In this document: one piece after another, positions 1 to 12,958 of the stretch
Layout: each line of letters begins with the position of its first letter
Numbering within the stretch: position 1 is the stretch's first letter
Assembly: GCA_902570265.1 (NCBI GenBank)
Contig: CACFXF010000009.1
Coordinates: forward strand, 1,231-65,230
Length of the DNA stretch: 64,000 bases
Direction: 5' to 3'
Source: an uncultured Alphaproteobacteria bacterium
Lineage (GTDB): Bacteria > Pseudomonadota > Alphaproteobacteria > Rhodobacterales > Rhodobacteraceae
Notes under the pieces: generated by a model
What the model saw: only the letters and a program-made list of their open reading frames with translations
Databases searched by the model: none
Told to the model about the DNA's origin: nothing
Translations under genes and position numbers: made by a program

Positions 1-804
1 GGAGGTCCTATTCATGAAATTTCCGCAGGTCTAATTAAAGAAATGAGTGGTTTTCCTACAGCTGATGTAATTTTCAAAGATGGATATGATAAAATAATAA
101 ATTTACTTGCCAAAAATCTTCAGATTCAAACTAATTCAATTGTTAAATCGGTAAACTACAGTAGTACTAATAATATTACAGTTTCTACTACATCCAAAAA
201 TTATGAATGTGACTATGTAATTTGCTCTGTTCCATTAGGAGTGCTCAAATTTAATTCTATAGAATTTAATCCTGCTCTACCTAGATATAAGCAGGATAGT
301 ATAGAAAACGTAGGCTTTGGAACAGTTACAAAATTAGCTTTAAAATTTAAAGATCAATTTTGGGATAGTGATGTTCAATATTATTATACTGTAGCCAAAG
401 AAACGGGAAGATGGCCTATATGGATGAATTATAGAACCTTTTCAAAAGAGAAAATTTTGATGGGTTTATGCATGGGTGATTATGCTAAAAAGGCAGATTT
501 AATGTCAAAAGAAGAATTAATAGAGGATGGCTTAAAAGTATTAAAAAATGTTTGGGAGGATGATGTTGGAGAAGTTCAAAATGTATTAAGAACTAGCTGG
601 CTTAATGACCCATTCACAAAAGGTGCCTATTCTTTTCCAAGAGTTGATAACTCTGAAGAAGATTTTGAAAATCTTGCTGAATCCGTTGATAATAGATTAT
701 TTTTTTGTGGAGAGCATACCGATCTCAAATATCTTGCAACAACTCATGGCGCTCTTTATACAGGAATACGAGCTGCCAAAGAAGTAATAAAGGCAAATAA
801 ATAA
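1..804 (+). CDS. Flavin-containing amine oxidase, C-terminal part (5' end lies outside the window)
   Basis: Frame 1 is open from base 1 (GGPIHEISAGLIKE precedes the listed Met at 43). The C-terminal FFCGEHT...THGALYTGIRAA is the typical FAD-contacting end of polyamine/monoamine oxidases. Confidence 0.7.
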   Translation, partial: GGPIHEISAGLIKEMSGFPTADVIFKDGYDKIINLLAKNLQIQTNSIVKSVNYSSTNNITVSTTSKNYECDYVICSVPLGVLKFNSIEFNPALPRYKQDSIENVGFGTVTKLALKFKDQFWDSDVQYYYTVAKETGRWPIWMNYRTFSKEKILMGLCMGDYAKKADLMSKEELIEDGLKVLKNVWEDDVGEVQNVLRTSWLNDPFTKGAYSFPRVDNSEEDFENLAESVDNRLFFCGEHTDLKYLATTHGALYTGIRAAKEVIKANK

Positions 805-859: not shown

Positions 860-1792
860 ATGTTCCATATGACTTTATTTAAAAAAATCATCTTTAATTT
901 TATTAAGATTTTAATTTTAAAATTTCTAATTAGTACACCCATTTTTGCTAAGCAAAACGATTGTAAAATAACTGCGGAAATGAGTAATGTCCCTGAGGAA
1001 TTATATGTAGATACTTACCCTATCATTATAACAGGAATAAACGAACTAGAGTCAACTTTCGATTACCAATTCTACCTAGGTTACTGGTATGAAATTGGCG
1101 GTGATATGCCTTACTGTTTCTTTGAATCAAATAATTTAGAAGAAGGAATATTTAATCCCTATTTTGAATTTCAAAATGCTATTGATTTGGAAAGAGTCAC
1201 TTCATTTGGAGTAGAAATAGAGGAGGAAGGAGTATATGTAAGTGCTAAATATAAAGGTAAATTTAAAGGTAAGTTTGATTTCACTATGTATCCTTTTGAT
1301 ACTCAAGACTTACATGTTGACATATCATCAACTTATTCCACAGATGATTTCAAAATTTATCTTGAGGATCAAAAAAATTCATTATTAGACGCGTTGGAGG
1401 TTCAGGGTTGGGATAAAATTAATTTTGCAAAAAAAATAGGTGTTGAAAAATGGGATCAAGATGATGAAGAGTATGATTTGATAAGTTATACAATCACCTT
1501 AGATCGACAGGTTTTTTCAATTTCTTTACGGCTTTTTTTGCCCCTGTTAGTAATTGTATCTTTAAACTTTTTATCCTTATTGCTAGAAAGAAATGATTTT
1601 GAATCAAAAATTGAAATACAATTAGCTGCCTTGATAGCAGTAGCAGCTTATTCTATACTTATGGATACAAAAATACCTGATCTACCTTACCTTACAATTG
1701 CCGATTCAATAATTGCTTTATCGTTTTTTTCTTCGGCAATTATACTCGCAATTTCTATTCTTAAAAAAAGAAAAAGGGATTACCAAAATTAG
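860..1792 (+). CDS. GLIC/ELIC-like pentameric ligand-gated ion channel homologue that ends about 10 aa after M3 (no M4)
   Basis: A signal peptide is followed by a roughly 180-aa extracellular-type domain. FTMYPFDTQDLHVDISS matches the Cys-loop-equivalent RRYPFDSQTLHIYLIV of GLIC as I recall it, and GWDKINF is also present. M1 is FSISLRLFLPLLVIVSLNFLSLLL, M2 is IEIQLAALIAVAAYSIL, then comes the PDLPYLT linker and M3. The stop codon lies inside repeat R1. Confidence 0.7.
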   Translation: MFHMTLFKKIIFNFIKILILKFLISTPIFAKQNDCKITAEMSNVPEELYVDTYPIIITGINELESTFDYQFYLGYWYEIGGDMPYCFFESNNLEEGIFNPYFEFQNAIDLERVTSFGVEIEEEGVYVSAKYKGKFKGKFDFTMYPFDTQDLHVDISSTYSTDDFKIYLEDQKNSLLDALEVQGWDKINFAKKIGVEKWDQDDEEYDLISYTITLDRQVFSISLRLFLPLLVIVSLNFLSLLLERNDFESKIEIQLAALIAVAAYSILMDTKIPDLPYLTIADSIIALSFFSSAIILAISILKKRKRDYQN

Positions 1793-1868
1793 ACATTAAT
1801 AGGCCATGGTTTTTGGGGCACCCTCGGGATATTTCGTAGGGGTAGGTGGAACGATTGTTATGTTTAGG
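1783..1868. repeat. Island repeat copy R1 (central hairpin segment missing)
   Basis: CCAAAAT..TAATAGGCCATGGTTTTTGGGGCACCCTCGGGATATTTCGTAGGGGTAGGTGGAACGATTGTTATGTTT aligns by eye with R3-R5. It overlaps the last codons and stop of the channel gene. Confidence 0.7.
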
Positions 1869-1885
1869 CAATTTTTTTGGCAAAT

Positions 1886-2119
1886 TTATTTTAGCAACTG
1901 AGTAAATCTTTGACCTTTATCTATTATTTTTGCTTCTAATAAAACTTCTGTGATAGCGTCCATCATCCCAAGGTCCTGATCAGTATATTCACCTTTTTCA
2001 ACTCTGCGTGCAGCCATGTAAAAATTAAGTGCTCCTAATGCATGATGATCACGCTTTTCACCGCCAGCAATTATTGATCCAGCATAATGATTAATTTTAT
2101 TTTCAATGAATATATCCAT
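1886..2119 (-). CDS. Hypothetical protein, 77 aa
   Basis: It is the only sizeable ORF in the R1-R2 interval. I recognise no motif in it. Confidence 0.35.
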   Translation of the reverse strand: MDIFIENKINHYAGSIIAGGEKRDHHALGALNFYMAARRVEKGEYTDQDLGMMDAITEVLLEAKIIDKGQRFTQLLK

Positions 2120-2211
2120 TTTAAACCCTTTTTTATTATGTATCTTAAATTAATACTTTTTATTTATGTCATATTTTTTTTAAATAAAATTAGAACAAAT
2201 TCAAATAATTT

Positions 2212-2270
2212 CCACCAAAAATATGTGAGAAGTAGTACTTGCTAATAATAGACTATGGTTTTTTTAGGAG
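2212..2270. repeat. Island repeat copy R2 (short)
   Basis: CCACCAAAAATATGTGAGAAGTAGTACTTGCTAATAATAGACTATGGTTTTTTTAGG shares the CCAAAA..GTGAG.AGTAGTACTTGCTAA..ATAG.CTATGGTTTTT core with R3 and R5. Confidence 0.7.
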
Positions 2271-2286
2271 TAATTTCTTAATTTTT

Positions 2287-2736
2287 TCAATGGTGCTTAT
2301 GAAAATCTATTTCCATTTTTTTAGTTAAAGGTACTTTATCTGCCATAAAATGACCATGATCATTTGAGTTCAAAGTTATTTCGATAATATTTTTCCCATT
2401 TTGCAACAACCTAGAAGGGATATGAAAATACGGGGAATATTGTCTAAATTTTGTACCATTAATATAGATATGAGCATGTCCTTCATTGCCATTATTTTTT
2501 CCATTAACGTTTTGGGGAGAAAATATAAAATTAGATGTATTAATTATAAGGTTAAAACCATCCATTTTATCTTCAAATAATTCAAAACTTAAAGTTGGAT
2601 AGGGTTTTTCTGCTTTTATCATTTTGTGTTTATTCTCATGTTTATGACTACTGTCATGATCATGATCATGATTTTCACTAGCATTCATAATATTAGTTAA
2701 AAAAATAAATATACTGATCAAAACCAAATTCTTCAT
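2287..2736 (-). CDS. Secreted histidine-rich putative metal-binding protein
   Basis: The likely start is the internal Met (MKNLVLISIFIFLTNIMNA signal peptide), not the ORF-track start at 2847. The mature end is ENHDHDHDSSHKHENKH, with an EGHAHIYING motif and an HKHH C-terminus. Confidence 0.55.
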   Translation of the reverse strand: MKNLVLISIFIFLTNIMNASENHDHDHDSSHKHENKHKMIKAEKPYPTLSFELFEDKMDGFNLIINTSNFIFSPQNVNGKNNGNEGHAHIYINGTKFRQYSPYFHIPSRLLQNGKNIIEITLNSNDHGHFMADKVPLTKKMEIDFHKHH

Positions 2737-2830
2737 AAACTTACCCCGTAATATCCCTAGATAATTATGACTAACTATAGATAAAAGCAGCAAATTTAAA
2801 GTTAAAAAATTATTTCTAAATACTATTGTT

Positions 2831-3295
2831 TTATTGCTCAACCTCAAAATCTAATTCAATATTACCAGCTTTTTTAAAAATAAATTTAGCCAAGTGAGGA
2901 TCCAACCATTCTAAACCTTTTTTTTCATTAAAAAAAATTAATTTAAAAGTATCCTCGTCAAAATATATTGCTTCACCACCACTAATTTCTAATCCTTCAT
3001 TTAAATCAACTTTAATATAATTCTCTGAAGCACCTTTTCTCTTCCAAATTTCAAAAGACAAAGAAAATTTTGGAATTATATTCATTAAATATTCACTATC
3101 TTCACCAATATTTTCTATTGTTAAGAACCCATAAGATCTGGAAACTTCCTGTTCAGTTTCTTTTATTAAATAAGGATGATAGATTATTAATGAACCGTGT
3201 TGTTCTTCATGAGCATTAATAGGACTTAAAAATAGGATGAAAACTAAGAACGATAAAATTTTTAATCTGTAATTTTTAAGCTTTTTCATAAACAA
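2831..3295 (-). CDS. Secreted PCu(A)C/DUF461-like protein; canonical Cu ligands not evident
   Basis: It has a signal peptide ending SPINA-HEEQHG. The pattern SLIIYHPY..GFLTIENIG..L...FEIW...IKV.L.EGLEI.GGE.I.F....FKLIFFN...AKFIFKKAGNIELDFEV follows the PCuAC beta-sandwich pattern as I remember it. The H(M)..M..HxM ligand positions are not conserved. Confidence 0.35.
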   Translation of the reverse strand: MFMKKLKNYRLKILSFLVFILFLSPINAHEEQHGSLIIYHPYLIKETEQEVSRSYGFLTIENIGEDSEYLMNIIPKFSLSFEIWKRKGASENYIKVDLNEGLEISGGEAIYFDEDTFKLIFFNEKKGLEWLDPHLAKFIFKKAGNIELDFEVEQ

Positions 3296-3345
3296 AACAA
3301 TAAATAATTTTTATTATTTGGAAAGTTTATTTTGAATTGCACCTA

Positions 3346-3427
3346 CCAACCAAAATGTGTGAGCAGTAGTACTTGCTAAAATAGGCTATGGTTTTTGGGA
3401 TACCCTTGAGAAATATATTACGGGTGA
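3346..3427. repeat. Island repeat copy R3
   Basis: The sequence is CCAACCAAAATGTGTGAGCAGTAGTACTTGCTAAAATAGGCTATGGTTTTTGGGATACCCTTGAGAAATATATTACGGGTG. Confidence 0.75.
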
Positions 3428-3507
3428 ATTATGTAAAAACTTAACTTTTTATTTTTTTTAAGCAAATAATATAAGTACTAAATAAGACAAAAGGAGTTAA
3501 AATCAAA

Positions 3508-3813
3508 ATGGTTGGAATGATTAACTGTATGAGGTTTAGACCTAAAGAAGGTCAGGTGGAAGCTTTGTTTAAGGCTTATGCAGAATACGTTAAAGATTAT
3601 CCATTTGATGACATAATGCATCAAATTATTGATCTAGGAACTGGAGAATACGCCCTAATAGGATTACATCATAGCATTGATACTTTTGTAGATATTATGA
3701 ATAGAGATAATCGTGTAAGTGATATGTTGAGAGAGTTCGTAGAGCCCTATGAAGACGGAGAAAGTTTTCATTCATTCTCGGGTCCTGTTGTAAACTATAA
3801 TGACTATCTGTAG
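3508..3813 (+). CDS. Small cytoplasmic protein, possibly ABM/Dabb-like ferredoxin fold, 101 aa
   Basis: AAGGAG lies about 8 nt upstream of the ATG. The size and the pattern (RFRPKEGQVEALFKAY...ALIGLH...) are reminiscent of antibiotic-biosynthesis-monooxygenase-like domains. The match is weak. Confidence 0.4.
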   Translation: MVGMINCMRFRPKEGQVEALFKAYAEYVKDYPFDDIMHQIIDLGTGEYALIGLHHSIDTFVDIMNRDNRVSDMLREFVEPYEDGESFHSFSGPVVNYNDYL

Positions 3814-3835
3814 TAAACATAAAAAAACTTTAATT

Positions 3836-4345
3836 CTAAAAACCTTGTTCTTCAATGCATTTCACTAACTCACTTACAGATGCAGCAGACCCTTTTAAAG
3901 AGAAACTACTGATTATCTTATCATTATCATCTAAATGGAAAAGCTCTTGACCTTTTCGAATTTCTTGAATCAATTCAATCACTGCTTTATCAGATCCAGA
4001 GTTTAGATCCATTACTAACCATCCAGAATCTAGATAAGGGCTTTCTGTATTCCAACTTGCAAGATCATCAACTGCAAATTGGAATATTTTTAAGCTTTCA
4101 TTTACATCTGACTCATCATCAAAAATAGCTAATTCTTCAACTTTAGCATTAACGTAAATTTGAAATTCTTTATTACCTAAACCATTTCTTGCAATGCATG
4201 CTGTACGTCTATCATCATACCTTAAAAGTACAACTTCCCAATTTCCTTTTTTGAAAAGTACCTTTTCATCAAATACTTCAGCTGAAAAAGAAGGATAGGT
4301 AAAAAAGAGATAAAATAATAATGTACAAAACTTAAATAATTTCAT
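3836..4345 (-). CDS. Secreted hypothetical protein (weakly IalB-like)
   Basis: The start was moved to the internal Met, giving the signal peptide MKLFKFCTLLFYLFFTYPSFSA. GNWEVV...C and the C-terminal FSLKGSAASVSELVKC resemble invasion-associated-locus-B type proteins. Confidence 0.4.
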   Translation of the reverse strand: MKLFKFCTLLFYLFFTYPSFSAEVFDEKVLFKKGNWEVVLLRYDDRRTACIARNGLGNKEFQIYVNAKVEELAIFDDESDVNESLKIFQFAVDDLASWNTESPYLDSGWLVMDLNSGSDKAVIELIQEIRKGQELFHLDDNDKIISSFSLKGSAASVSELVKCIEEQGF

Positions 4346-4439
4346 TTTAAAACCCCAGTTACTAAAGCAAAAAATCAAGTATGACTTCAATATAAATAAT
4401 TGTAATAAAAAAAAGTTAAATTTTTTAAATTAAAAATTT

Positions 4440-4798
4440 CCAACCAAAAAGTGTTAGTTATATCACTTCCTTATAATAGGCTATGGTTTTTGGGGTACCT
4501 TCAAGGATATGTCTTAGGGGTGGGGGTCATAAGTGTTATGATTATTATGTTCTCACGAAAAATTGACCAACTGCCCCTTTTACTGCCCCCTTTTGCACAT
4601 TTTCCCTATATTTTTCATTTTACAGAAACCAATTTCTGGTCATATAATTTAATGAAAGCAAGTTTCAGAGATGGAGGAAACACCAATGAAATATAGTGCA
4701 AAATGCCATTGTGGTGAAATAACTGTCTAGATGGAACATGAATCCATGATGCAGTTTTTGTTTCATTGTTCTATATGCCATCAAAGAATTGGAACTTC
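4440..4798. repeat. Island repeat copy R4 (long form, about 359 bp), the left direct repeat of the adhesin block
   Basis: It is collinear with 12262-12621. After a divergent first 40 nt it is roughly 85-90% identical by eye. It includes the short-repeat core, a conserved C-rich leader and the first 37 codons of a GFA-family gene. Confidence 0.85.
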
Positions 4799-4808
4799 AT
4801 CGGAATAG
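4686..4808 (+). pseudogene. GFA/CENP-V family gene fragment (5' end only, in-frame TAG)
   Basis: It reads MKYSAKCHCGEITV*MEHESMMQFLFHCSICHQRIGTS. The TAG at 4728-4730 replaces the GAG seen in the second copy, and homology ends at 4798. Confidence 0.75.
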
Positions 4809-4901
4809 TAATCAATAGTCTCAGTAGTTATAGATATTCAATAAAATAAGGCATTATTGTTATCAGCACTCTCAGTAAAATCTTTAGCTAGCTATGGTAT
4901 T

Positions 4902-5111
4902 CTAAGCCAATCGCCCCCTCAATCGCACCCCTATATTATCTAAAGCAGTATCTAACTTATCATCATTTGTATTAAAGAAGTGAGCATAGATTTTCATTGT
5001 TATCTGTAGTTTAGCATGCCCTAGCCTCTGTTGAATTTTTGGTAGATATATTTCTTCAGAAACCAAATTGCTAGACTTGTGCTTTTTTGATTTTGGAATT
5101 TTTGCCGAGTT
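4902..5111 (-). pseudogene. Tyrosine recombinase (phage-type integrase) 3' remnant
   Basis: The minus-strand frame reads NSAKIPKSKKHKSSNLVSEEIYLPKIQQRLGHAKLQITMKIYAHFFNTNDDKLDTALDNIGV...*. LGHxxxxxTxxYxH is the Box II / catalytic-Tyr motif. There is no room for the N-terminal 250+ aa before the lipoprotein gene at 5175. Confidence 0.65.
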
Positions 5112-5174
5112 AAAAAAAAATTTAATAATTAGTAATTCTTAGTAAAAAGGTATTTAAATGCAATCAATTATTGA

Positions 5175-5993
5175 CTAGTTACCATTTTTTCCTAGGAAAG
5201 CTCCCCTTATTTCAATTGAACCAGTATCTGTATCGTCAACGGAAAAAACTCCTCCAATCTCAGCTGAATTGGGACCAAAAAATGTGCCATCAGATTCCAT
5301 CTGATATTGATTAGTCAAAGTATTAGTAATAATTCCATTTTTTAATTCTATTTTGTTAAGACAAATTCTATTTCCATTACAAATAGAACCACTTGGGAAT
5401 ATAATATCTACAGCATTAGAAATTGGACAATCCCTGCAACTTAAATTTAGCATAGACATCTTCCCAGATAGCGAAGTCAATTCACCAACCAGCTCCCCTT
5501 CTAATCCATTAAAATCAATTTGAATTTTACTGTTTCCAGTCAAGTCATATAATGCAGTCCCATCATTTATAAAAATTCTAGATGTTCCCAAGTAAGTATA
5601 ATTACCCTCAACTATGTCCCCTGAAGATTCAGGAATTCCTATAATTCCGAAAGAACCATTCAAAGTATTACCTTCAGGAATATAAGTCACAAAACTTGTA
5701 AGATCCTTGATTGGAATTCCATTCTCTACATTCTTACTAGGCGCACCATCTTTTTCATTAATAATAACCAAAGCAGATCCTTGTTTCCTTACAAATTCTC
5801 CCTCAATATTCTCTAAATCTAAGGTAGTTCCGTCAATAGTTATTAATTTTAAATTAGATACATCTAATGAATTTAAATCATACAGAGATCCCTTTTGCTC
5901 TTCCATTTTTTGTATGGATTGACCACTACATCCAGTCATAATGAAACCAAATATAATTAAAAATATTATATTAAATTCCTTGATAAGCGACAC
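5175..5993 (-). CDS. Lipoprotein with a TbpB/fHbp-type C-terminal beta-barrel (surface-lipoprotein-like)
   Basis: It has a GTG start with AAGGAG about 9 nt upstream and a lipobox FIMTGC. GNSKIQIDFNGLEGELVGEL and DGTFFGPNSAEIGGVFSV...GSIEIRGAFLGKN match the F.GP.A.E.GG.F....G.F signature of transferrin-binding-protein-like barrels. Confidence 0.55.
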   Translation of the reverse strand: MSLIKEFNIIFLIIFGFIMTGCSGQSIQKMEEQKGSLYDLNSLDVSNLKLITIDGTTLDLENIEGEFVRKQGSALVIINEKDGAPSKNVENGIPIKDLTSFVTYIPEGNTLNGSFGIIGIPESSGDIVEGNYTYLGTSRIFINDGTALYDLTGNSKIQIDFNGLEGELVGELTSLSGKMSMLNLSCRDCPISNAVDIIFPSGSICNGNRICLNKIELKNGIITNTLTNQYQMESDGTFFGPNSAEIGGVFSVDDTDTGSIEIRGAFLGKNGN

Positions 5994-6014
5994 AAATATT
6001 GCTCCTTTTATTAA

Positions 6015-9000
6015 TTAAATTAGAGTAAAGTTATCAGGTGTAAACTCCTCAACCCTAATGTCATAAATCAATACTGTACAATCTCTATCAGAAAATTCTG
6101 AATGACCGTCTGGGGTAGTTTCAATCTTAGTAAGAACTTCTTCAAATCCATTATAATTAAAAGACTTGAGGTCAATCTTATCTTTGTCAATTTCAAAGTC
6201 TCTTCCCACTGGCTCAAATGAGCTTATATTGTTAAAATTCAGATTAAATTTAGCAATAATATCGTTTCCATCAGAGGGTGAGAATATAAATAAATCTGAT
6301 CCATTTCCTCCTTCAAGCAAGTCATCTCCAGCTCCACCCTCAAGTGTATCATTTCCATAAAAATAATCCGAAAATAAAAGATCGCCAATTATATAATCAT
6401 TTTCTGAGTTACCACTTAAAGGATTATCGCCCGTACCTCCAATTAAAATATCTGCTCCAGAACCACCTTCTGCTCCACTATTTTTACCAGCAGCAACAAT
6501 GAGATCATCATATTGACTGCCTTTTATAAGTATATTACTAAATGCATCTTTGAAAACGTTCCTGATGCTCGGTGGTAAAATAGCTTGTTTTAAAGAAATA
6601 TTTAACCCTGAGCTGGAAATTACCTCCTCATTGAAACCAACTGAATCAATGAAACTTGCTTTTACTGTTAAATTCTTTCCTATATCTTCATTTTTTATTA
6701 CATAATCACGTTCAGTTGCACCTAATATCTCTACATTATTTCTAAACCATTGAAAATCTAAACTTCCATAACCATCAGGATCAATAAAATTAGGGATTGC
6801 AAGAAGGGTTTCACCAACATCTGCCCTCCCACTTATTGTAATATCTCCTTTAGCAGGAGTATTACTAGCTGCAACGTTAATAACAAATTGATCAGTTATT
6901 TGGCCGCCATTTCCATCGTTAACTGTTATTTCAAAGGTATTCAGACCAAAATTTGATCTAGATGGATTGACTGTCAAAATTGTGGAAGATCCATCAAAAT
7001 TACACCAAGAAGGTAATGCAGCACCCCCAGGAAGTGTAATGGACATAGTTAAGTTGTGATCATCTGGATCTGTGAAAAATTGGTTAAATGATAAATTTTC
7101 AGAAGTATTTTCATAAAGGTTCCAAATCGGTATTGTTTTCTTTAAAACAGGATTATCGTTCACATTAGAAATGTTTAATACAACTGCTTTTGAACCTGAT
7201 AAAGCACCTAATCCATCATCAGTAGCAATAACTGTAAAATCATATGAAGATTTAGTTTCATAATCTGCTGAAGCCTTTAATCTAACTTCTCCATCATCTG
7301 CATCAATTGTAAAATATGATGAATCAGCACCGGAAATAGAAAATGTTAGATTATCGCCTGAATCCACATCAGTCGCCGTGGCAGTATATAAAACAGAACT
7401 ATTTGCTTGGTTTTCCGCAGCAGTAACCGTTGCAGAAGAAGTTATTGAAGGCATTTCGTTTACATCATTTACACTTATCGTAACTGCTTCTGTATCACTT
7501 GATCCATCAGGATCAGTAGCGATGACATTAAAAGAGTAGGAATTTTTTGTTTCAAAATTTGCTGAAGAATTTAATCTAACTTCTCCATCATCTGAATCAA
7601 TAGCAACCAAAGAAGCATCTGTTCCAGAAACTGAGTAAGTCAAGATATCTGTAATATCTGCGTCGGAAGCAGAGACATCATATATCACAGTGTTAGTATT
7701 AGCATTTTCTTGGATACTACCAGTTAAACTAGTAGTATCAATCGTAGGACTGGACTCATTGACGTTACTAACTGTAACCGTAAGTACTTGAGTAGAAAAA
7801 ATTCCTGAACCGTCGGTAGTTGTTGCTTTTACTTCAACCTGATAGGTATTATTTCCATCTGAATCTAGTGGAACTTCAAAGTTTGGGGCGGAATTAAAGG
7901 TTAAATTACCTGATCCGTCTATACTGAACTTACTCCCATCCAAACCAGAGTTTATATCCCACGTCACTCCTACATTTGCTGAAAATGTAGTAACAGCGGT
8001 TTGATTTTCCTGCTTTGTTATTGCTGAAGTATCTGAACCTGCAGAATTACTAGGTCCAGTAATTAAGGGTGTCCTAACATTAACGGTTAAAATACCAGTA
8101 TCAGTCCCACCATTTCCATCAGATACAGTATAGTTTATTGTCTCACTAATATTCGCCGCACCAGAAGGAGGTGTATAGTTTATCGTTGTTCCATTATGAC
8201 TTACAGTACCACTTCCTCCGTAACTTATTGATTGTATAGTTAACCCATCACCATCCTCATCTGTATCATCATTAAGGACGACAATACTATTAAGTGCCGT
8301 ATTTATAGTAGTTATTCCTAGGTCATCTGTAACTTCAGGGCTATCATTTTGATCTGATATATTGATAGTAATAGCCTTACTAGTTGAGGATGGAGTACCT
8401 CCATCATCTGTTGCTATTACATTCAAACTATAAGAGTTTTTAACCTCAAAGTTTGCAGAATTATTTAATCTGATTTCCCCATCATCCGAGTCTATAGTCA
8501 CTAAGGAAGAATCCGTACCGCTAACGGAGAATGCTAATGATTGTCCAGAATCAGGGTCAGAGGCTGAAGCATCATAGGCTATGGTACCTATTGAAGCATT
8601 TTCTGCTATTGAACCGCTTGAACCTGAGGAAATTACTGGAGGGTCATTAAGATCATTAATATTTAGGGATATAGCTTGCGTATCAGAAAGATTTCCGCCA
8701 ACACCATTGTCTGTTACAGTAACGTTAAAACTATAAGAACTCTTATTCTCATAATCAGCTGAAGCTTTTAACCTAACTTCTCCGTCATCAGCATCAATTG
8801 TAAAGTGCGATGAATCAGCACCTGAAATCGAAAATGTCAAGGTGTCAGCAGTATCCAAATCTGTAGCTTCAGCATCATAAATCACAATGCTAGGGTTCTG
8901 GTTTTCATCAGCATTTACCACTGATCCAGATGTAATATTTGGGGCATCATTGATAGAAGTAAAATTAATGTCGAGGGTACCTGTCCCCGACTGTTCCGCT

Positions 9001-10556
9001 CCACTAATACCATTAATGCTGGTCCCTTTAACTGTTAAAGTTTTTGATGCTGGCGGATTATCTGAAGTGCTTTCATATTTTACCTTTCGAGCAATGTCTT
9101 GAACCATTCCATCAGTAATGGTTGTAGGAGCTGGAATACTTTCTGTTACACTCACATTATCTACATATAGTTGCGCACCTGCCCATCTACCTCCTGAAAA
9201 ATCAAAAGTTCCAGAGACAAATACAAAACGATAAGAGCCTGGATTAGTAACGGTGACAGTCTCTGTAGCCCAAGATGTTGTTGCACCTCCTGAAGAGCCC
9301 GTTTCATTTAATATTTCTACAAAGCTATTATCATCTTTATTGACGATATATCCAAAAACATCATAGGCATCGGACCCTCCTACGGCTTTCCAATCAAAGC
9401 TGACTTTATCATTTGCTCTTAAGAAAACAGTATTATCACTATAAAGTGCAGGACCTCTAACAATATCATAACCTGACTTTGCAATTATTCCAGTGCTTGT
9501 TAATCTAACAGAGTATTCTCCTCCACCATCATTATTCACTGCGGCTGAATAAGTTCCAACAGTAGTCGGAATATTTTGATCAGAAATAGCTCTTCCAATT
9601 GCTGGAGGGGTAGTGTCTGTTGGCGTATTCAAACCACCAATTTGGGTTACTCCAAAATAAATAGGGCCAGACTGTATTTGCCAGTTTCCAAAAGAGGAAG
9701 ATCCATCATTAGTTTCAAAATTTCCATTTTGAAAACTATTTGAAATATTTACCCTTAATGGATTACCATTTAATCCATTCTTAGTTGAATCAACGTTACC
9801 TAATATAGCAGCACCAGTTCCATTACCAACGTAAACAACAGATCCTATTATCGAGACCTGGCCGTTTATGGTCGAAGCTGCTCCATCATTAGAAAATCTA
9901 AGAAAGTCATGGCTATCAGAGGAAGAAAGACTAAATTCTAAATACCCCCCTGCATAATTATCACCACCAGCAGCTCCACCAGTAATTGATATGTCGCTAT
10001 CTATAACTGAAAGTGCAGCTTGTTCATTATAAGATAAGTCAGTAAGGTTGGTTATTGAGGGAGTGCCCAAAGTTCCTGGGATAGAAGAAGGATAGAGTGA
10101 AGCACTTTCAATTCTTCCAACTGTAGTTTCTAAATCCCAATCACCACCAAAGGATGGTGAGCCCGAAATATCATCTGATGCTGCAAAATCAACACCTGAA
10201 ATTCTTGAAAGAAGTTGTAAGAATTCTTCTCCTTTTCCACCACTACCAATGTCACATCCATAAAGATGGATATCTGCTTCCTTACCTAATGAATTACCTA
10301 TCGTGATTAAATCTTTGCTAAAATTTTTTGCATTATCAGTGGTTACTGAACCACTGGAAAATTTTAAAACACCTGATTCACCATGGCTAAAAATATGTAA
10401 GGAACCTAGATTACTGTCATTACCAATAATGTTAGCAATTTGACGAAGAGCATTTTGATTAGTATCTAAGATATGAACTAAATAGTGTTCAGATAACTCA
10501 TCTAATAAAGCCAAATATCCAGGCACACTTTTATCAATAAATACTACTGCCATCAT
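6015..10556 (-). CDS. Giant (1513 aa) DUF4347-cadherin-RTX repeat protein, putative T1SS-secreted adhesin
   Basis: The N-terminus (VVFIDKSVPGY...HIFSHGESG...HLYGCDIG) looks like DUF4347. At least 6 cadherin-like modules carry the ...D.D.GD.L.FS.SG.D...F.ID...G...L....D(Y/F)E....Y...V.A.D motif. The C-terminal nonapeptides are GGSGADILIGGTGDN and LEGGAGDDLLEGGNGSDLFIF (about 6280-6500). Confidence 0.85.
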   Translation of the reverse strand: MMAVVFIDKSVPGYLALLDELSEHYLVHILDTNQNALRQIANIIGNDSNLGSLHIFSHGESGVLKFSSGSVTTDNAKNFSKDLITIGNSLGKEADIHLYGCDIGSGGKGEEFLQLLSRISGVDFAASDDISGSPSFGGDWDLETTVGRIESASLYPSSIPGTLGTPSITNLTDLSYNEQAALSVIDSDISITGGAAGGDNYAGGYLEFSLSSSDSHDFLRFSNDGAASTINGQVSIIGSVVYVGNGTGAAILGNVDSTKNGLNGNPLRVNISNSFQNGNFETNDGSSSFGNWQIQSGPIYFGVTQIGGLNTPTDTTPPAIGRAISDQNIPTTVGTYSAAVNNDGGGEYSVRLTSTGIIAKSGYDIVRGPALYSDNTVFLRANDKVSFDWKAVGGSDAYDVFGYIVNKDDNSFVEILNETGSSGGATTSWATETVTVTNPGSYRFVFVSGTFDFSGGRWAGAQLYVDNVSVTESIPAPTTITDGMVQDIARKVKYESTSDNPPASKTLTVKGTSINGISGAEQSGTGTLDINFTSINDAPNITSGSVVNADENQNPSIVIYDAEATDLDTADTLTFSISGADSSHFTIDADDGEVRLKASADYENKSSYSFNVTVTDNGVGGNLSDTQAISLNINDLNDPPVISSGSSGSIAENASIGTIAYDASASDPDSGQSLAFSVSGTDSSLVTIDSDDGEIRLNNSANFEVKNSYSLNVIATDDGGTPSSTSKAITINISDQNDSPEVTDDLGITTINTALNSIVVLNDDTDEDGDGLTIQSISYGGSGTVSHNGTTINYTPPSGAANISETINYTVSDGNGGTDTGILTVNVRTPLITGPSNSAGSDTSAITKQENQTAVTTFSANVGVTWDINSGLDGSKFSIDGSGNLTFNSAPNFEVPLDSDGNNTYQVEVKATTTDGSGIFSTQVLTVTVSNVNESSPTIDTTSLTGSIQENANTNTVIYDVSASDADITDILTYSVSGTDASLVAIDSDDGEVRLNSSANFETKNSYSFNVIATDPDGSSDTEAVTISVNDVNEMPSITSSATVTAAENQANSSVLYTATATDVDSGDNLTFSISGADSSYFTIDADDGEVRLKASADYETKSSYDFTVIATDDGLGALSGSKAVVLNISNVNDNPVLKKTIPIWNLYENTSENLSFNQFFTDPDDHNLTMSITLPGGAALPSWCNFDGSSTILTVNPSRSNFGLNTFEITVNDGNGGQITDQFVINVAASNTPAKGDITISGRADVGETLLAIPNFIDPDGYGSLDFQWFRNNVEILGATERDYVIKNEDIGKNLTVKASFIDSVGFNEEVISSSGLNISLKQAILPPSIRNVFKDAFSNILIKGSQYDDLIVAAGKNSGAEGGSGADILIGGTGDNPLSGNSENDYIIGDLLFSDYFYGNDTLEGGAGDDLLEGGNGSDLFIFSPSDGNDIIAKFNLNFNNISSFEPVGRDFEIDKDKIDLKSFNYNGFEEVLTKIETTPDGHSEFSDRDCTVLIYDIRVEEFTPDNFTLI

Positions 10557-10847
10557 TATATTTTACATGAATATAATCTATAATCCAAATTTTCTCTTCT
10601 ATTAAGAAACGACTATTGTAAATTCGTATATCTAATTTATAGATAGTACATTTTTTTATAGGTGTTAATAGAAATTGGTAGTCAACAGTCTTAGCCACAA
10701 TATGCTCGTTACTATTGTTGATATAAATAGTTTTGCTTATTATTTGTGAATTAAAGTATTTTCAAAAATATCTTTTTAAGTAATTCAAAATTATAAATAT
10801 AAATATTATTCTTTATTTTTTTATTTATTTCATACATTTTATTTTCT

Positions 10848-11885
10848 ATGAAAAAGTTGGGGTTTTTAAATATAATATTTATAACATACTTTTTTTTACA
10901 TACTCCCTTAGTATACGGATCAGAAAGGTTAGAATTATATTTTCTTACTGAAAAATTATTAAATACAAAAATATTAAATACAAACGAATTTATACAATTT
11001 AGTTTAAATTCAAAATCTTTAGGCTTTAAATACTTAAAGGATAATAACAAAAAAAAATCTATATTTTTAATTAATAGAGCCTTTTATCCAATAATTACCT
11101 ATTCAGATAATATCAACGGAGGTAACCTATTCCAAACAATTCAGTTAGGTGAACTAACGTTTGAGGGTGAAGAGGAGGCCAAAGCAAAATCAGGTTTATT
11201 AATTGGTGGTGGTATCTTCTTAGATATCAAAAAACAATATGGGATAGGGAGATATCTTGATTTAAGAATGAATGCCTCATTATCTGCGGCACCCACTCAT
11301 GATTGGTTAAGCATTAGAGACAAATCCATAATTGCTTGTTCAAAAAATCATCTAAAAGAATGGTTTTTTTTTGATGCCTGTGCACATTGGGGACATAATA
11401 AAAGACAATATATAGATGAAATTAATAAAAATCTTTCAGTTTCATTAACAAGATTATTTATAACTAAAAAAGTCTTTAACGAAAGTATTTTTACAATAAA
11501 TAGACATATTTCTGATAAATATCATCAAATGCAAGGAATATTTGCATTAAATTCATTATTACCTAATGGTTACAAAACAAATTTCTCTATTACACTTGGT
11601 GAACCAATTAAAGAATTAATTTCATTAAATTACTCATTAAGTCTAGCTGTAAGCAAATATATAAAGAGAAAACCGTTGAGGCTTTCATTAAAGCAAACTC
11701 ATTATGATGGTGGAAAATTCCTTGGAATAGATAGGGAAGATACTACCCAACAAATATCTGTTTCATATCCCATCAATAACAGATTTAATATTGCTTTGGG
11801 ATATACTAGAAATAAATCTTCCATTAGTTCTTTTAGCCATAACGGACCCCACATAGAGTTTTCATTTCCTTTACGAAGTTTTTAA
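10848..11885 (+). CDS. Outer-membrane beta-barrel protein, 345 aa (possible minimal Slam/DUF560-like barrel)
   Basis: The signal peptide is MKKLGFLNIIFITYFFLHTPLVYG. It shows alternating hydrophobic strands and the C-terminal ...HIEFSFPLRSF with a terminal Phe. YSDNINGGN and the REDT...NKSSISSFSH tail are reminiscent of DUF560, recalled from memory only. Confidence 0.5.
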   Translation: MKKLGFLNIIFITYFFLHTPLVYGSERLELYFLTEKLLNTKILNTNEFIQFSLNSKSLGFKYLKDNNKKKSIFLINRAFYPIITYSDNINGGNLFQTIQLGELTFEGEEEAKAKSGLLIGGGIFLDIKKQYGIGRYLDLRMNASLSAAPTHDWLSIRDKSIIACSKNHLKEWFFFDACAHWGHNKRQYIDEINKNLSVSLTRLFITKKVFNESIFTINRHISDKYHQMQGIFALNSLLPNGYKTNFSITLGEPIKELISLNYSLSLAVSKYIKRKPLRLSLKQTHYDGGKFLGIDREDTTQQISVSYPINNRFNIALGYTRNKSSISSFSHNGPHIEFSFPLRSF

Positions 11886-11946
11886 TAAAATCTTTAAAAT
11901 TTAGCCTAAGCATATATAAAGTCTTGGAAGATCAGTTATTTTTTTA

Positions 11947-12165
11947 CTTAGAAAAGCTGTTCTTGAAGCTATTAAAGAAAATAATGATAAGACACAGAAA
12001 GAGTTAATAGAAATTATGACTAATGAAGGTTTTAAAACTTCAAAAGGTAAATCAATCAGCAAACAGCAAATGTCTGATTGTATTATTGGATTACTTGAAG
12101 AAGGTTTAATTGGGAAAACAGTTTTAGCGCATAAAGAGACTTATTACGATAGTCCACTTACTTAA
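11947..12165 (+). pseudogene. Start-less winged-helix-like ORF fragment
   Basis: The frame is open from 11920 with no ATG/GTG/TTG start. It reads LRKAVLEAIKENNDKTQKELIEIMTNEGFKTSKGKSISKQQMSDCIIGLLEEGLIGKTV, a wHTH-like pattern. Confidence 0.3.
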
Positions 12166-12261
12166 CTGACCGAACTTACTCACCATTCATTTGCATTAAC
12201 TGGTAAGCTTAGTAAGTGCAGTAAGTTCCATTCTAAATTAAAGCCACTTATTTTATATCTT

Positions 12262-12621
12262 CCATACCAAAATATGTAAGCAGTAGTACTTTCTAAGAAT
12301 AGGCTATGGTTTTTTGGGGTACCCTCAAGGATATGCCTTAGGGGTGGTGTTATGATTGTTATGTTTGTTATGTTCTCACGAAAAATTGACCAGCTGCCCC
12401 TTTTACTGCCCCCTTTTGCACGTTTTCCCTATATTTTTCATTTTATAAAAAATAATTTCTGATTGTATAATTTATTGAAAGTAAGTTTAAGAGATGGAGG
12501 AAACCCCAATGAAATATAGTGCGAAATGCCATTGTGGTGAAATAACTGTCGAGATAGAACATGACCCTATGATGCAGTTTATGTGTCACTAATCTATATG
12601 GCATCAAAGAATTGGAACTTC
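12262..12621. repeat. Island repeat copy R5 (long form, about 360 bp), the right direct repeat of the adhesin block
   Basis: It is collinear with 4440-4798. It contains the best copy of the short-repeat core (CCAAAATATGTAAGCAGTAGTACTTTCTAAGAATAGGCTATGGTTTTTTGGGGTACCCTCAAGGATATGCCTTAGGGGTGG). Confidence 0.85.
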
Positions 12622-12958
12622 TATTTCTGCTTTAGCTTGGCCTGAACATGAAATAATTATAACTGGTAATTTAAAACCTTATAAAATATTTGGTGGCATT
12701 GGTATGGATATGTATTACTATTACTGTCCATCTTGTAGTTGTTTTATATATAATAAACCTGATCTTCTTGAAGGAATGGTTTATATCCCAGCCGGATTAT
12801 TAGGAGAGCAAATAGAATTTAAACCAACAGTTGAATTATGGTCAGGCAATAGACCCAATTGGATGCAGAAAGCTCCCTCCATAATTGAGTCTTTTGCAGA
12901 CAATGGCACCTTAGAAAGACTTCAAGAGTTATTAGAAAATCTAGATCAAAGAGAATAA
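12509..12958 (+). pseudogene. GFA (glutathione-dependent formaldehyde-activating)/CENP-V family gene with an in-frame TAA
   Basis: A single 150-codon frame reads MKYSAKCHCGEITVEIEHDPMMQFMCH*SIWHQRIG...YYCPSCSCF... The TAA at 12590-12592 sits where copy R4 has Cys (CHCSIC), and the second Cys is changed to Trp. Confidence 0.7.

Follow-up and report, generated by a model that had tools for sequence, protein, structure and literature searches.

Ion channels of the pentameric ligand-gated family (pLGICs) share a fourth transmembrane helix, M4, which is regarded as a constant of the family, as a sensor of lipid and as an element of assembly. For two prokaryotic members, GLIC and ELIC, we know of no established physiological role and no established native ligand. 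ELIC is opened by primary amines (PMC3119659), and engineered deletions within ELIC M4 speed desensitisation without abolishing function (PMC8327344), so a working channel with only three transmembrane helices (3-TM) is plausible. Here we describe a 3-TM pLGIC gene near the beginning of a 64,000-nucleotide stretch of DNA, hereafter the window, which was taken from contig CACFXF010000009.1 of an uncultured Rhodobacteraceae bacterium (G000 in our genome numbering) and analysed at its full length. An initial annotation made from the sequence alone had left it undecided whether this gene was a fresh pseudogene or a natural M4-less pLGIC. We consider it probable that the gene is intact and under selection, and that its product belongs to a clade of prokaryotic pLGICs in which M4 is naturally missing and works together with periplasmic amine oxidation. 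The parts of this reading differ in strength: that the product is a natural, intact 3-TM pLGIC is very probable, that it is a functional gated channel is moderately likely, and that its ligand is of an amine type tied to the neighbouring oxidase is a tentative suggestion.

Family assignment and architecture of the predicted protein

A phmmer search of all PDB chains identified GLIC as the best match to the predicted protein (E=7e-17), with query residues 95–296 aligned to GLIC residues 69–271. This alignment spans the Pro-loop, the pre-M1 Arg, M1, M2, the M2–M3 loop and most of M3, and so bears out the correspondence that the initial annotation had drawn by eye from the Pro-loop to M3. Within the Pro-loop, FDFTMYPFDTQDLHV aligned to GLIC DFRRYPFDSQTLHI, the YPFD motif being equivalent to GLIC Y119–D122. 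The description "GLIC-like" was right as to the pLGIC family but too narrow as a label, as the profile of the clade described below is equally near ELIC: its match to ELIC (2VL0) had an E-value of 7e-28 and paired profile positions 36–303 with ELIC residues 5–287, and its match to GLIC was on a par with this (~1e-27). Among family models, NCBIfam LGIC_1 matched the channel at 6e-15 with a score far under the family cut-off, nine of 11 clade members matched Neur_chan_LBD (best E-value 7.9e-10), and Neur_chan_memb was present in some bacterial relatives with four transmembrane helices (4-TM; P0172 and P0173).

The AlphaFold2 (AF2) model of the monomer consists of a beta-sandwich, exactly three C-terminal helices and an N-terminal helix at residues 3–24, with a predicted local distance difference test score (pLDDT) of 85.6 and a predicted template modelling score (pTM) of 0.73; the final input was a 43-sequence alignment that included 4-TM relatives, a shallow alignment of 18 sequences having given a pLDDT of 59.8. 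Foldseek searches against the PDB placed DeCLIC, ELIC, sTeLIC and GABA-A subunits on top, with a probability of 1.0 and TM-scores of 0.53–0.63. Because the direct sequence, profile and fold evidence agree, we regard membership of the pLGIC superfamily as secure at the level of sequence and model, despite the weak matches to Pfam hidden Markov models (HMMs). The protein has the beta-sandwich with its Pro-loop, and M1, M2 and M3 with a pore-lining M2 and the coupling residues. The M4 and extracellular C-terminus of canonical 4-TM members are missing, and the protein is therefore best described as a variant of the superfamily and not as a canonical member.

The features of the protein are listed in Table 1. 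An alternative ATG at 869 is the start of a 99%-identical database entry, P0001. The putative signal peptide is matched in relatives by short hydrophobic cores with small residues at -3 and -1 (e.g., AFA-Q, ALA-Q and SFG-Q, the hyphen marking the presumed cut) followed by an invariant Cys, which is consistent with cleavage. In the beta-sandwich domain, C35 and C86 are invariant across the clade and may form a disulfide, and there is an insertion specific to the clade around residues 86–100. In the alignment of 43 pLGICs the Pro-loop residues P145, F146, D147 and Q149 were invariant, as were the coupling residues R216, P273 and T279, with Y277 and D282 nearly so. Alignment to GLIC placed E248 at -2', K250 at 0', I259 at 9' and I266 at 16' of M2, the prime positions following the GLIC numbering. 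Conserved throughout the clade are E248, Q254, A263, P273, Y277 and T279, the -2' Glu being nearly invariant. Comparison with the 91%-identical orthologue in the genus-mate genome 'Paracoccaceae bacterium LRMED-261' (G005) gave a ratio of nonsynonymous to synonymous substitution rates (dN/dS) of 0.13 overall and 0.135 in the transmembrane domain (TMD), as low as in the extracellular domain (ECD), a sign that the gene is under purifying selection.

These patterns bear on an alternative in which the protein does not conduct, and instead binds or regulates in the periplasm while held in the membrane, using its TMD as an anchor or oligomerisation module; it might tether or regulate the oxidase, or sense through protein contacts. 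The acetylcholine-binding protein (AChBP) provides a precedent for a pLGIC ligand-binding domain that works without a channel, the loss of M4 might accompany a loss of channel function, and the gene is tightly paired with that of an enzyme and not with transport or signalling genes. However, the residues of the pore and of coupling, useless to an anchor, are the best conserved in the clade (the -2' Glu, the P..PY.T motif, the pre-M1 Arg and the Pro-loop Asp), and dN/dS is no higher in the TMD than in the ECD. We consider a non-conducting protein of this kind unlikely.

Absence of M4 across the clade

The stop codon at 1790–1792 ends the open reading frame (ORF) 14 residues past the last aligned M3 residue (C-terminus ...SILKKRKRDYQN), whereas GLIC and ELIC have ~32 and ~34 more residues, respectively, beyond M3, which form M4; the initial annotation was correct that this helix is missing. 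It had named full-length orthologues with the same end as the finding that would speak against a truncation here, and this check came out positive, as the full-length relatives that we found likewise end after M3. The same end point was seen in ~30 homologues of 25–99% identity from unrelated contexts, some of them high-GC and free of the repeat that follows the gene here. A search of 5.8 billion proteins identified 21 relatives (210–328 residues); 17 relatives were aligned (46–99% identity), and the 16 that were not garbled all end in S-I-(L/I)-K-K-R-x-(R/S)-D plus 2–10 residues. When 1.84 billion representatives were searched exhaustively, seven more clusters at 25–44% identity came to light (P0022, P0023, P0025, P0026, P0027, P0029 and P0030), in all of which the C-terminus lies no more than ~12 residues after M3, and P0177 is a complete gene according to the flag at its source. 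Ordinary 4-TM pLGICs began at E-values of ~1e-18, extended ~40 residues more and had a clear M4. Tail lengths of the 144 representative matches that reach M3 fell into two groups, with at most 12 extra residues in 11, 13–24 in none and at least 25 in the other 133. One of the 11 short-tailed proteins, P0134 (289 residues), lies outside the 3-TM clade and ends without M4, ~20 hydrophilic residues after M3; this single sequence could reflect a separate loss of the helix, a fragment or an error in gene calling.

Of 80 pLGIC loci kept from a scan that took a single genome for each GTDB species, we checked 44; M4 was absent only from the three close relatives (in a Paracoccaceae metagenome-assembled genome (MAG), in a MAG of Amylibacter and on a short contig that had been binned as Flavobacteriaceae), and the other 41 had 28–64 further residues. 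No longer intact orthologue was found in the 5.8-billion-protein or 1.84-billion-representative collections or in the GTDB species genomes examined. In four loci (L010, L094, L097 and L102) a convergent gene ends 21–50 nt past the channel stop, leaving no space for a separate M4 ORF or exon or for a recoded extension. A high AT content does not account for the absence of M4, since an 83-kb high-GC contig also carries a 3-TM member. When 13 3-TM proteins and 37 4-TM proteins were placed in a maximum-likelihood tree, the former made up one clade, with a value of 100 in the Shimodaira–Hasegawa-like approximate likelihood ratio test (SH-aLRT), a single change of state and an internal divergence of more than one substitution per site. 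As the end point is shared by the whole clade, the loss of M4 was a single ancient event that did not take place at this locus, and the gene has since then been kept.

The clade is small, with ~8 clusters at 50% identity among ~1,700 pLGIC-like representatives, and as far as records show its members come from uncultured, mostly marine organisms. Those that could be placed are Alphaproteobacteria (Rhodobacterales), except L016 (JABAYZ010000051.1), a 2.8-kb contig binned as Flavobacteriaceae that carries a 53%-identical 3-TM channel gene; faulty binning is a likelier cause of this placement than transfer across phyla. In the open-access literature searched, including the two main inventories of prokaryotic pLGICs (PMC549065 and PMC4795631), no pLGIC that naturally lacks M4 was described. 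The neurotransmitter-receptor channels thus have in the 3-TM clade a small group of relatives from marine bacteria that had not been described before.

Within the window, no M4-like coding potential was detected downstream in any frame, and the three frames after the stop contained no conserved hydrophobic ORF. The TBLASTN search for M4 that the initial annotation had called for, run over the entire window with 15 M4 tails as queries, returned noise only (E-values of 0.05 or more). One candidate remnant, a 31-codon ORF (MVFGAPSGYFVGVGG...), was rejected: it lies inside the repeat and is unconserved in G005. The same ORF matters to a further alternative, in which the site of M4 is filled by the N-terminal helix, left uncleaved as a signal anchor with the in-to-out direction of M4, or by a separate small membrane protein encoded elsewhere. 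The helix at residues 3–24 is modelled at fair confidence, and the link of ~20 residues from it to beta1, which would be pinned by the invariant Cys35, might be just long enough to climb the exterior of the ECD. Yet the N-terminal hydrophobic cores are short (~11–15 residues; ~11 in the L102 protein) and unconserved and are followed by the -3/-1 motifs of signal peptidase, the downstream neighbours in the contexts examined include no recurring small transmembrane ORF, and the 31-codon ORF has no conserved counterpart in G005. A substitute for M4 is in our judgement very unlikely, and a natural 3-TM subunit is the reading that we carry forward.

Table 1. Positions in the window of the channel gene, its predicted protein features and its neighbours (aa, amino acid residues).
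Feature	Position	Strand	Basis or remark
M4-less (3-TM) pLGIC gene, intact	860..1792	+	310 codons/aa, uninterrupted ORF
Signal peptide, predicted cleavable, ~aa 1–30, ending ...STPIFA before KQNDC	860..949	+	AF2 helix 3–24, then low-confidence linker
Ligand-binding-type beta-sandwich, predicted periplasmic, aa 31–217	950..1510	+	AF2 strands, pLDDT mostly 89–96
Pro-loop (Cys-loop equivalent) FDFTMYPFDTQ, aa 139–149	1274..1306	+	Aligned to GLIC DFRRYPFDSQ
M1 helix, aa 218–240	1511..1579	+	Preceded by invariant pre-M1 Arg216
M2 helix, predicted pore-lining, aa 247–271, then M2–M3 loop IPDLPYLT	1598..1672	+	Residue-by-residue alignment to GLIC M2
M3 helix, aa 280–309, into basic, predicted cytoplasmic tail KKRKRDYQN	1697..1786	+	AF2 and clade alignment
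Flavin amine oxidase gene, 3' two-thirds	1..804	+	Pfam Amino_oxidase, E=4e-53
R1, copy of dispersed genus-specific ~100-nt intergenic repeat	1798..1865	+	BLAST against other copies
Convergent 77-aa ORF (MDIFIENKINHYAGSIIAGGEKRDHH...)	1886..2119	-	Syntenic in G005, ~90% identity
Repeat copies in first 12.6 kb, n=5	1798-1865, 2197-2267, 3346-3425, 4425-4800, 12248-12621		
54-aa ORF with tyrosine-recombinase C-terminal motif (LGHAKLQITMKIYAHF)	4902-5066	-	Beside repeat copy 4425-4800

Amine oxidase and other neighbours

Upstream of the channel gene, on the same strand and at a distance of 55 nt, is a gene for a flavin amine oxidase of the polyamine/spermine-oxidase-like kind. The full oxidase gene encodes 454 residues and starts 561 nt before the window (G000:C9:670), and the N-terminus of its product carries a twin-arginine (Tat) signal, MKLSRRYALKSLL.... 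The nearest relatives of solved structure were spermine oxidase (2.5e-40), maize polyamine oxidase (7e-37) and the oxidase domain of LSD1 (5e-43). Given this signal and the periplasmic ectodomain of the channel, the two proteins are predicted to share the periplasm. Every near-family context (channel identity of at least 53%) with a readable upstream flank, namely G005, L009, L010–L012, L013, L015, L098 and L110, has an orthologous oxidase gene (45–93% identity) on the strand of the channel and immediately upstream of it; most of these oxidases carry an SRR/KR signal motif. In L010–L012 the two genes overlap by 11 nt, and the downstream neighbours vary among these contexts. The oxidase upstream of the L013 channel was called as two ORFs of 335 and 115 residues (L013:2034-3404), which could mean that the frame has shifted, that the contig is misassembled or that this copy is decaying.

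Amine-related enzymes were also encoded beside more distant relatives. The gene for P0022, a 44%-identical 3-TM protein on the 83-kb high-GC contig (L102:1-5795), lies 270 nt downstream of an operon of the soxB/D/A/G type for sarcosine oxidase; its called gene (264 residues) starts too late, and the frame continues upstream to MATLVFMTGAVAAGGKC..., taking in the conserved Cys as well as a signal peptide. A 4-TM pLGIC of 366–386 residues from a high-GC MAG of the Alphaproteobacteria (L017:3333-5972) is encoded directly downstream of an agmatine deiminase with a Tat signal, again a polyamine-pathway enzyme paired with a channel; it has the same Cys-bearing insertion in the ECD, and its M3 is followed by the motif KNKRRDD.

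Repeat R1 and the variable region

The initial annotation correctly saw that a repeat, R1, follows the gene directly, and took the last codons and the stop to be part of it. The latter does not hold: BLAST supports R1 only from 1798, 6 nt past the channel stop and outside the gene. The segment in question, TACCAAAATTAG, shares with the repeat only the 8-mer ACCAAAAT, which is like the 5' motif of the repeat, and ~20 nt of the repeat are missing there. In L110, which encodes an 80%-identical protein ending in ...KQN, the last codons are AAACAAAACTAG, followed by the same TAG-ACATTAATAGG junction as here and by a copy of R1; five of the six bases of CAAAAT recur in it as CAAAAC, giving the same Gln-Asn codons, and the 8-mer is absent. 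It follows that the Gln-Asn codons belong to the coding sequence and that R1 has long stood next to the stop codon in synteny. A degenerate copy lies at the same position after the stop in G005.

The repeat (core ...AATAGGCTATGGTTTTTGGGGTACCC...) occurs in at least 35 copies in the 2.16-Mb assembly, mostly as arrays in the same orientation, and the copies, spaced 0.5–3.5 kb apart, divide variable regions into blocks of one to four genes. Besides those in the window (Table 1), copies were seen on contigs C30, C26 and C52 of G000, and ~9 lie within 10 kb downstream of the channel gene in G005 (L008). The repeat was absent from every one of the more distant 3-TM channel loci, and is confined to the genus-level group. 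Two identities were considered for it and rejected. For an integron attC site, the genome contained no integron integrase (Xer-like matches were far under the cut-off) and by eye the repeat had no RYYYAAC/GTTRRRY ends; for a structured RNA or terminator, folding z-scores ranged from -0.7 to +0.6 and there was one weak terminator-like hairpin at 1811–1829. An Rfam scan of the window identified two distant tRNAs only.

The convergent 77-residue ORF beyond R1 matched no Pfam, NCBIfam or PADLOC family and was absent from L110 and all other channel loci apart from G005, and PADLOC gave no defence match for the channel either. Collinearity with G005 covers the oxidase, the channel and this ORF and extends over positions 1–2194 of the window before it breaks, so the channel gene lies in a conserved flank and not at the breakpoint, with the 77-residue gene in between. 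The initial annotation, which put the channel at the edge of an accessory region, was roughly right, but this conserved gene separates it from the variable part. In another genus-mate, G011, the oxidase is followed by 2.5 kb of other genes and then by the GFA–LysE–fatty-acid-hydroxylase block that corresponds to position 12704 onward in the window, so the whole stretch 860–12700 behaves as replaceable. The channel is deleted in genus-mates, next to a recombination hotspot. The 54-residue ORF with a tyrosine-recombinase motif (Table 1) looks like an integrase remnant.

It was this setting that had suggested a fresh pseudogene, i.e., a 4-TM GLIC-like gene whose M4 end was replaced when R1 and the variable region were inserted. 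R1 is indeed only 6 nt past the stop, the locus adjoins a hypervariable stretch with decayed genes and the integrase remnant a few kb off, and the gene has been lost entirely from three genus-mates. Against such a replacement, the C-terminus ends identically in ~30 homologues down to 25% identity, including repeat-free lineages and a high-GC genome, the downstream 77-residue gene is syntenic in G005, dN/dS is 0.13 and no M4 remnant was found in the window. Longer orthologues, relaxed selection and a surviving remnant, by which a truncated pseudogene would be recognised, were all lacking in the collections and sequences examined. Of the two options in the initial annotation, the natural M4-less pLGIC stands, and we regard the fresh pseudogene as having next to no probability.

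Proposed function

A single pLGIC gene was found in each of G000 and G005, so there is no 4-TM partner subunit. In the mechanism that we propose for the natural 3-TM channel, the protein would form a homopentamer with M2 lining a cation-selective pore (Glu at -2' and hydrophobic gate positions at 9' and 16'), M1 and M3 would face the lipid directly, and the KKRKRD cluster would keep the C-terminus cytoplasmic. The periplasmic domain may bind an amine related to a substrate or product of the oxidase, and opening would then couple the presence of the amine to cation flux or to membrane potential; ammonium released by the oxidase might also enter through the channel. The pentamer, ion conduction, ion selectivity and the ligand are all predictions, which we infer from the sequence and the model. 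A more specific proposal, that these M4-less pentameric cation channels are gated by polyamine-type or methylated amines and serve, jointly with the exported oxidase, to sense amines and scavenge nitrogen in the periplasm, we put forward as speculation of rather doubtful standing.

Several observations weigh against the reading of the gene as an intact channel that works with amine oxidation. M4 is needed for the folding and function of GLIC, so a 3-TM version might not conduct. An ELIC-like ligand pocket was considered and was unsupported by the clade-profile alignment: E131 and F133 of ELIC loop B, the Glu/Phe pair that binds primary amines, align to Ser156 and Thr158, at an identity (20%) at which the alignment of this loop is unreliable. 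When the Neur_chan models were run, as the initial annotation had proposed, Neur_chan_LBD scored the channel at 20.6 bits, under its cut-off of 26, and Neur_chan_memb (PF02932) gave no match, at E-values of up to 1 for the channel and up to 0.01 for the 11 clade members; the sequence, profile and fold evidence still places the protein in the family. The most distant 3-TM members have SNase (upstream of P0171), GST and GAF-cyclase genes as neighbours, with the oxidase link absent or unseen in these few contexts, as a word-indexed profile search recovered only two of the distant 3-TM clusters and the upstream flanks of P0030 and P0177 were unread. In the genus-mates G011, G014 and G004 (loci L107, at G011:C14:18000-24000, L108 and L109, respectively) the oxidase is kept at 81–91% identity and both the channel and the 77-residue ORF are absent, so the oxidase needs no channel and the channel is dispensable. 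Finally, PMC8119899 describes the pLGIC membrane domain as four helices, and M4 is treated as belonging to every pLGIC.

If a natural 3-TM channel is confirmed, the "universal" fourth helix would be dispensable in nature, and a deep M4-less clade under purifying selection would be a natural experiment on the lipid-facing surfaces of M1 and M3, and on gating and desensitisation without the sensor. If the amine link is also right, this would be the first bacterial pLGIC with a native ligand and a physiological role. From the neighbouring genes for the oxidase, the sarcosine oxidase operon and the agmatine deiminase, a short and concrete set of candidate ligands can be drawn up for these marine Rhodobacteraceae, which are abundant and low in GC. 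With ~280 residues in its mature form, the protein would in addition rank among the smallest pLGIC scaffolds for structural work.

Comparison with known channels

ELIC (PDB 2VL0) is likewise prokaryotic and without an extra N-terminal domain, and could be aligned to the clade from beta1 to the end of M3, with a fold match of probability 1.0. It differs from the clade in its full M4 (~34 more residues) and in its overall sequence (~20% identity), and the clade has in addition the ECD insertion and the invariant Cys pair. Truncations of ELIC M4 (e.g., 6HJY, Delta8) are laboratory constructs, and engineered ELIC tolerates the removal of the helix only in part, whereas the absence of M4 in the clade is natural.

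The likeness to GLIC (PDB 3EAM/4HFI) extends to the Pro-loop YPFD(S/T)Q.LH, the pre-M1 Arg, the -2' Glu, the hydrophobic 9' and 16' positions and the P..PY.T loop. GLIC differs in having M4, whose aromatic contacts with M1 and M3 its folding and function rely on, and in its ~25% identity, and in the tree the 3-TM clade stands apart from all 4-TM relatives. In addition, GLIC H235, the His at M2 11' that is implicated in proton gating, is replaced by Val261 in the channel, and the residue expected of a proton-gated orthologue of the GLIC type is thus missing. DeCLIC and sTeLIC were among the top Foldseek matches (TMq 0.59–0.61 for DeCLIC and 0.55 for sTeLIC); unlike the channel described here, both have M4, and DeCLIC has a large N-terminal domain that the channel is without.

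The molluscan AChBP is another natural relative of the pLGICs that is missing part of the canonical architecture. AChBP is soluble and has lost the whole membrane domain, whereas the channel misses only the peripheral helix, its predicted pore-forming helices being conserved.

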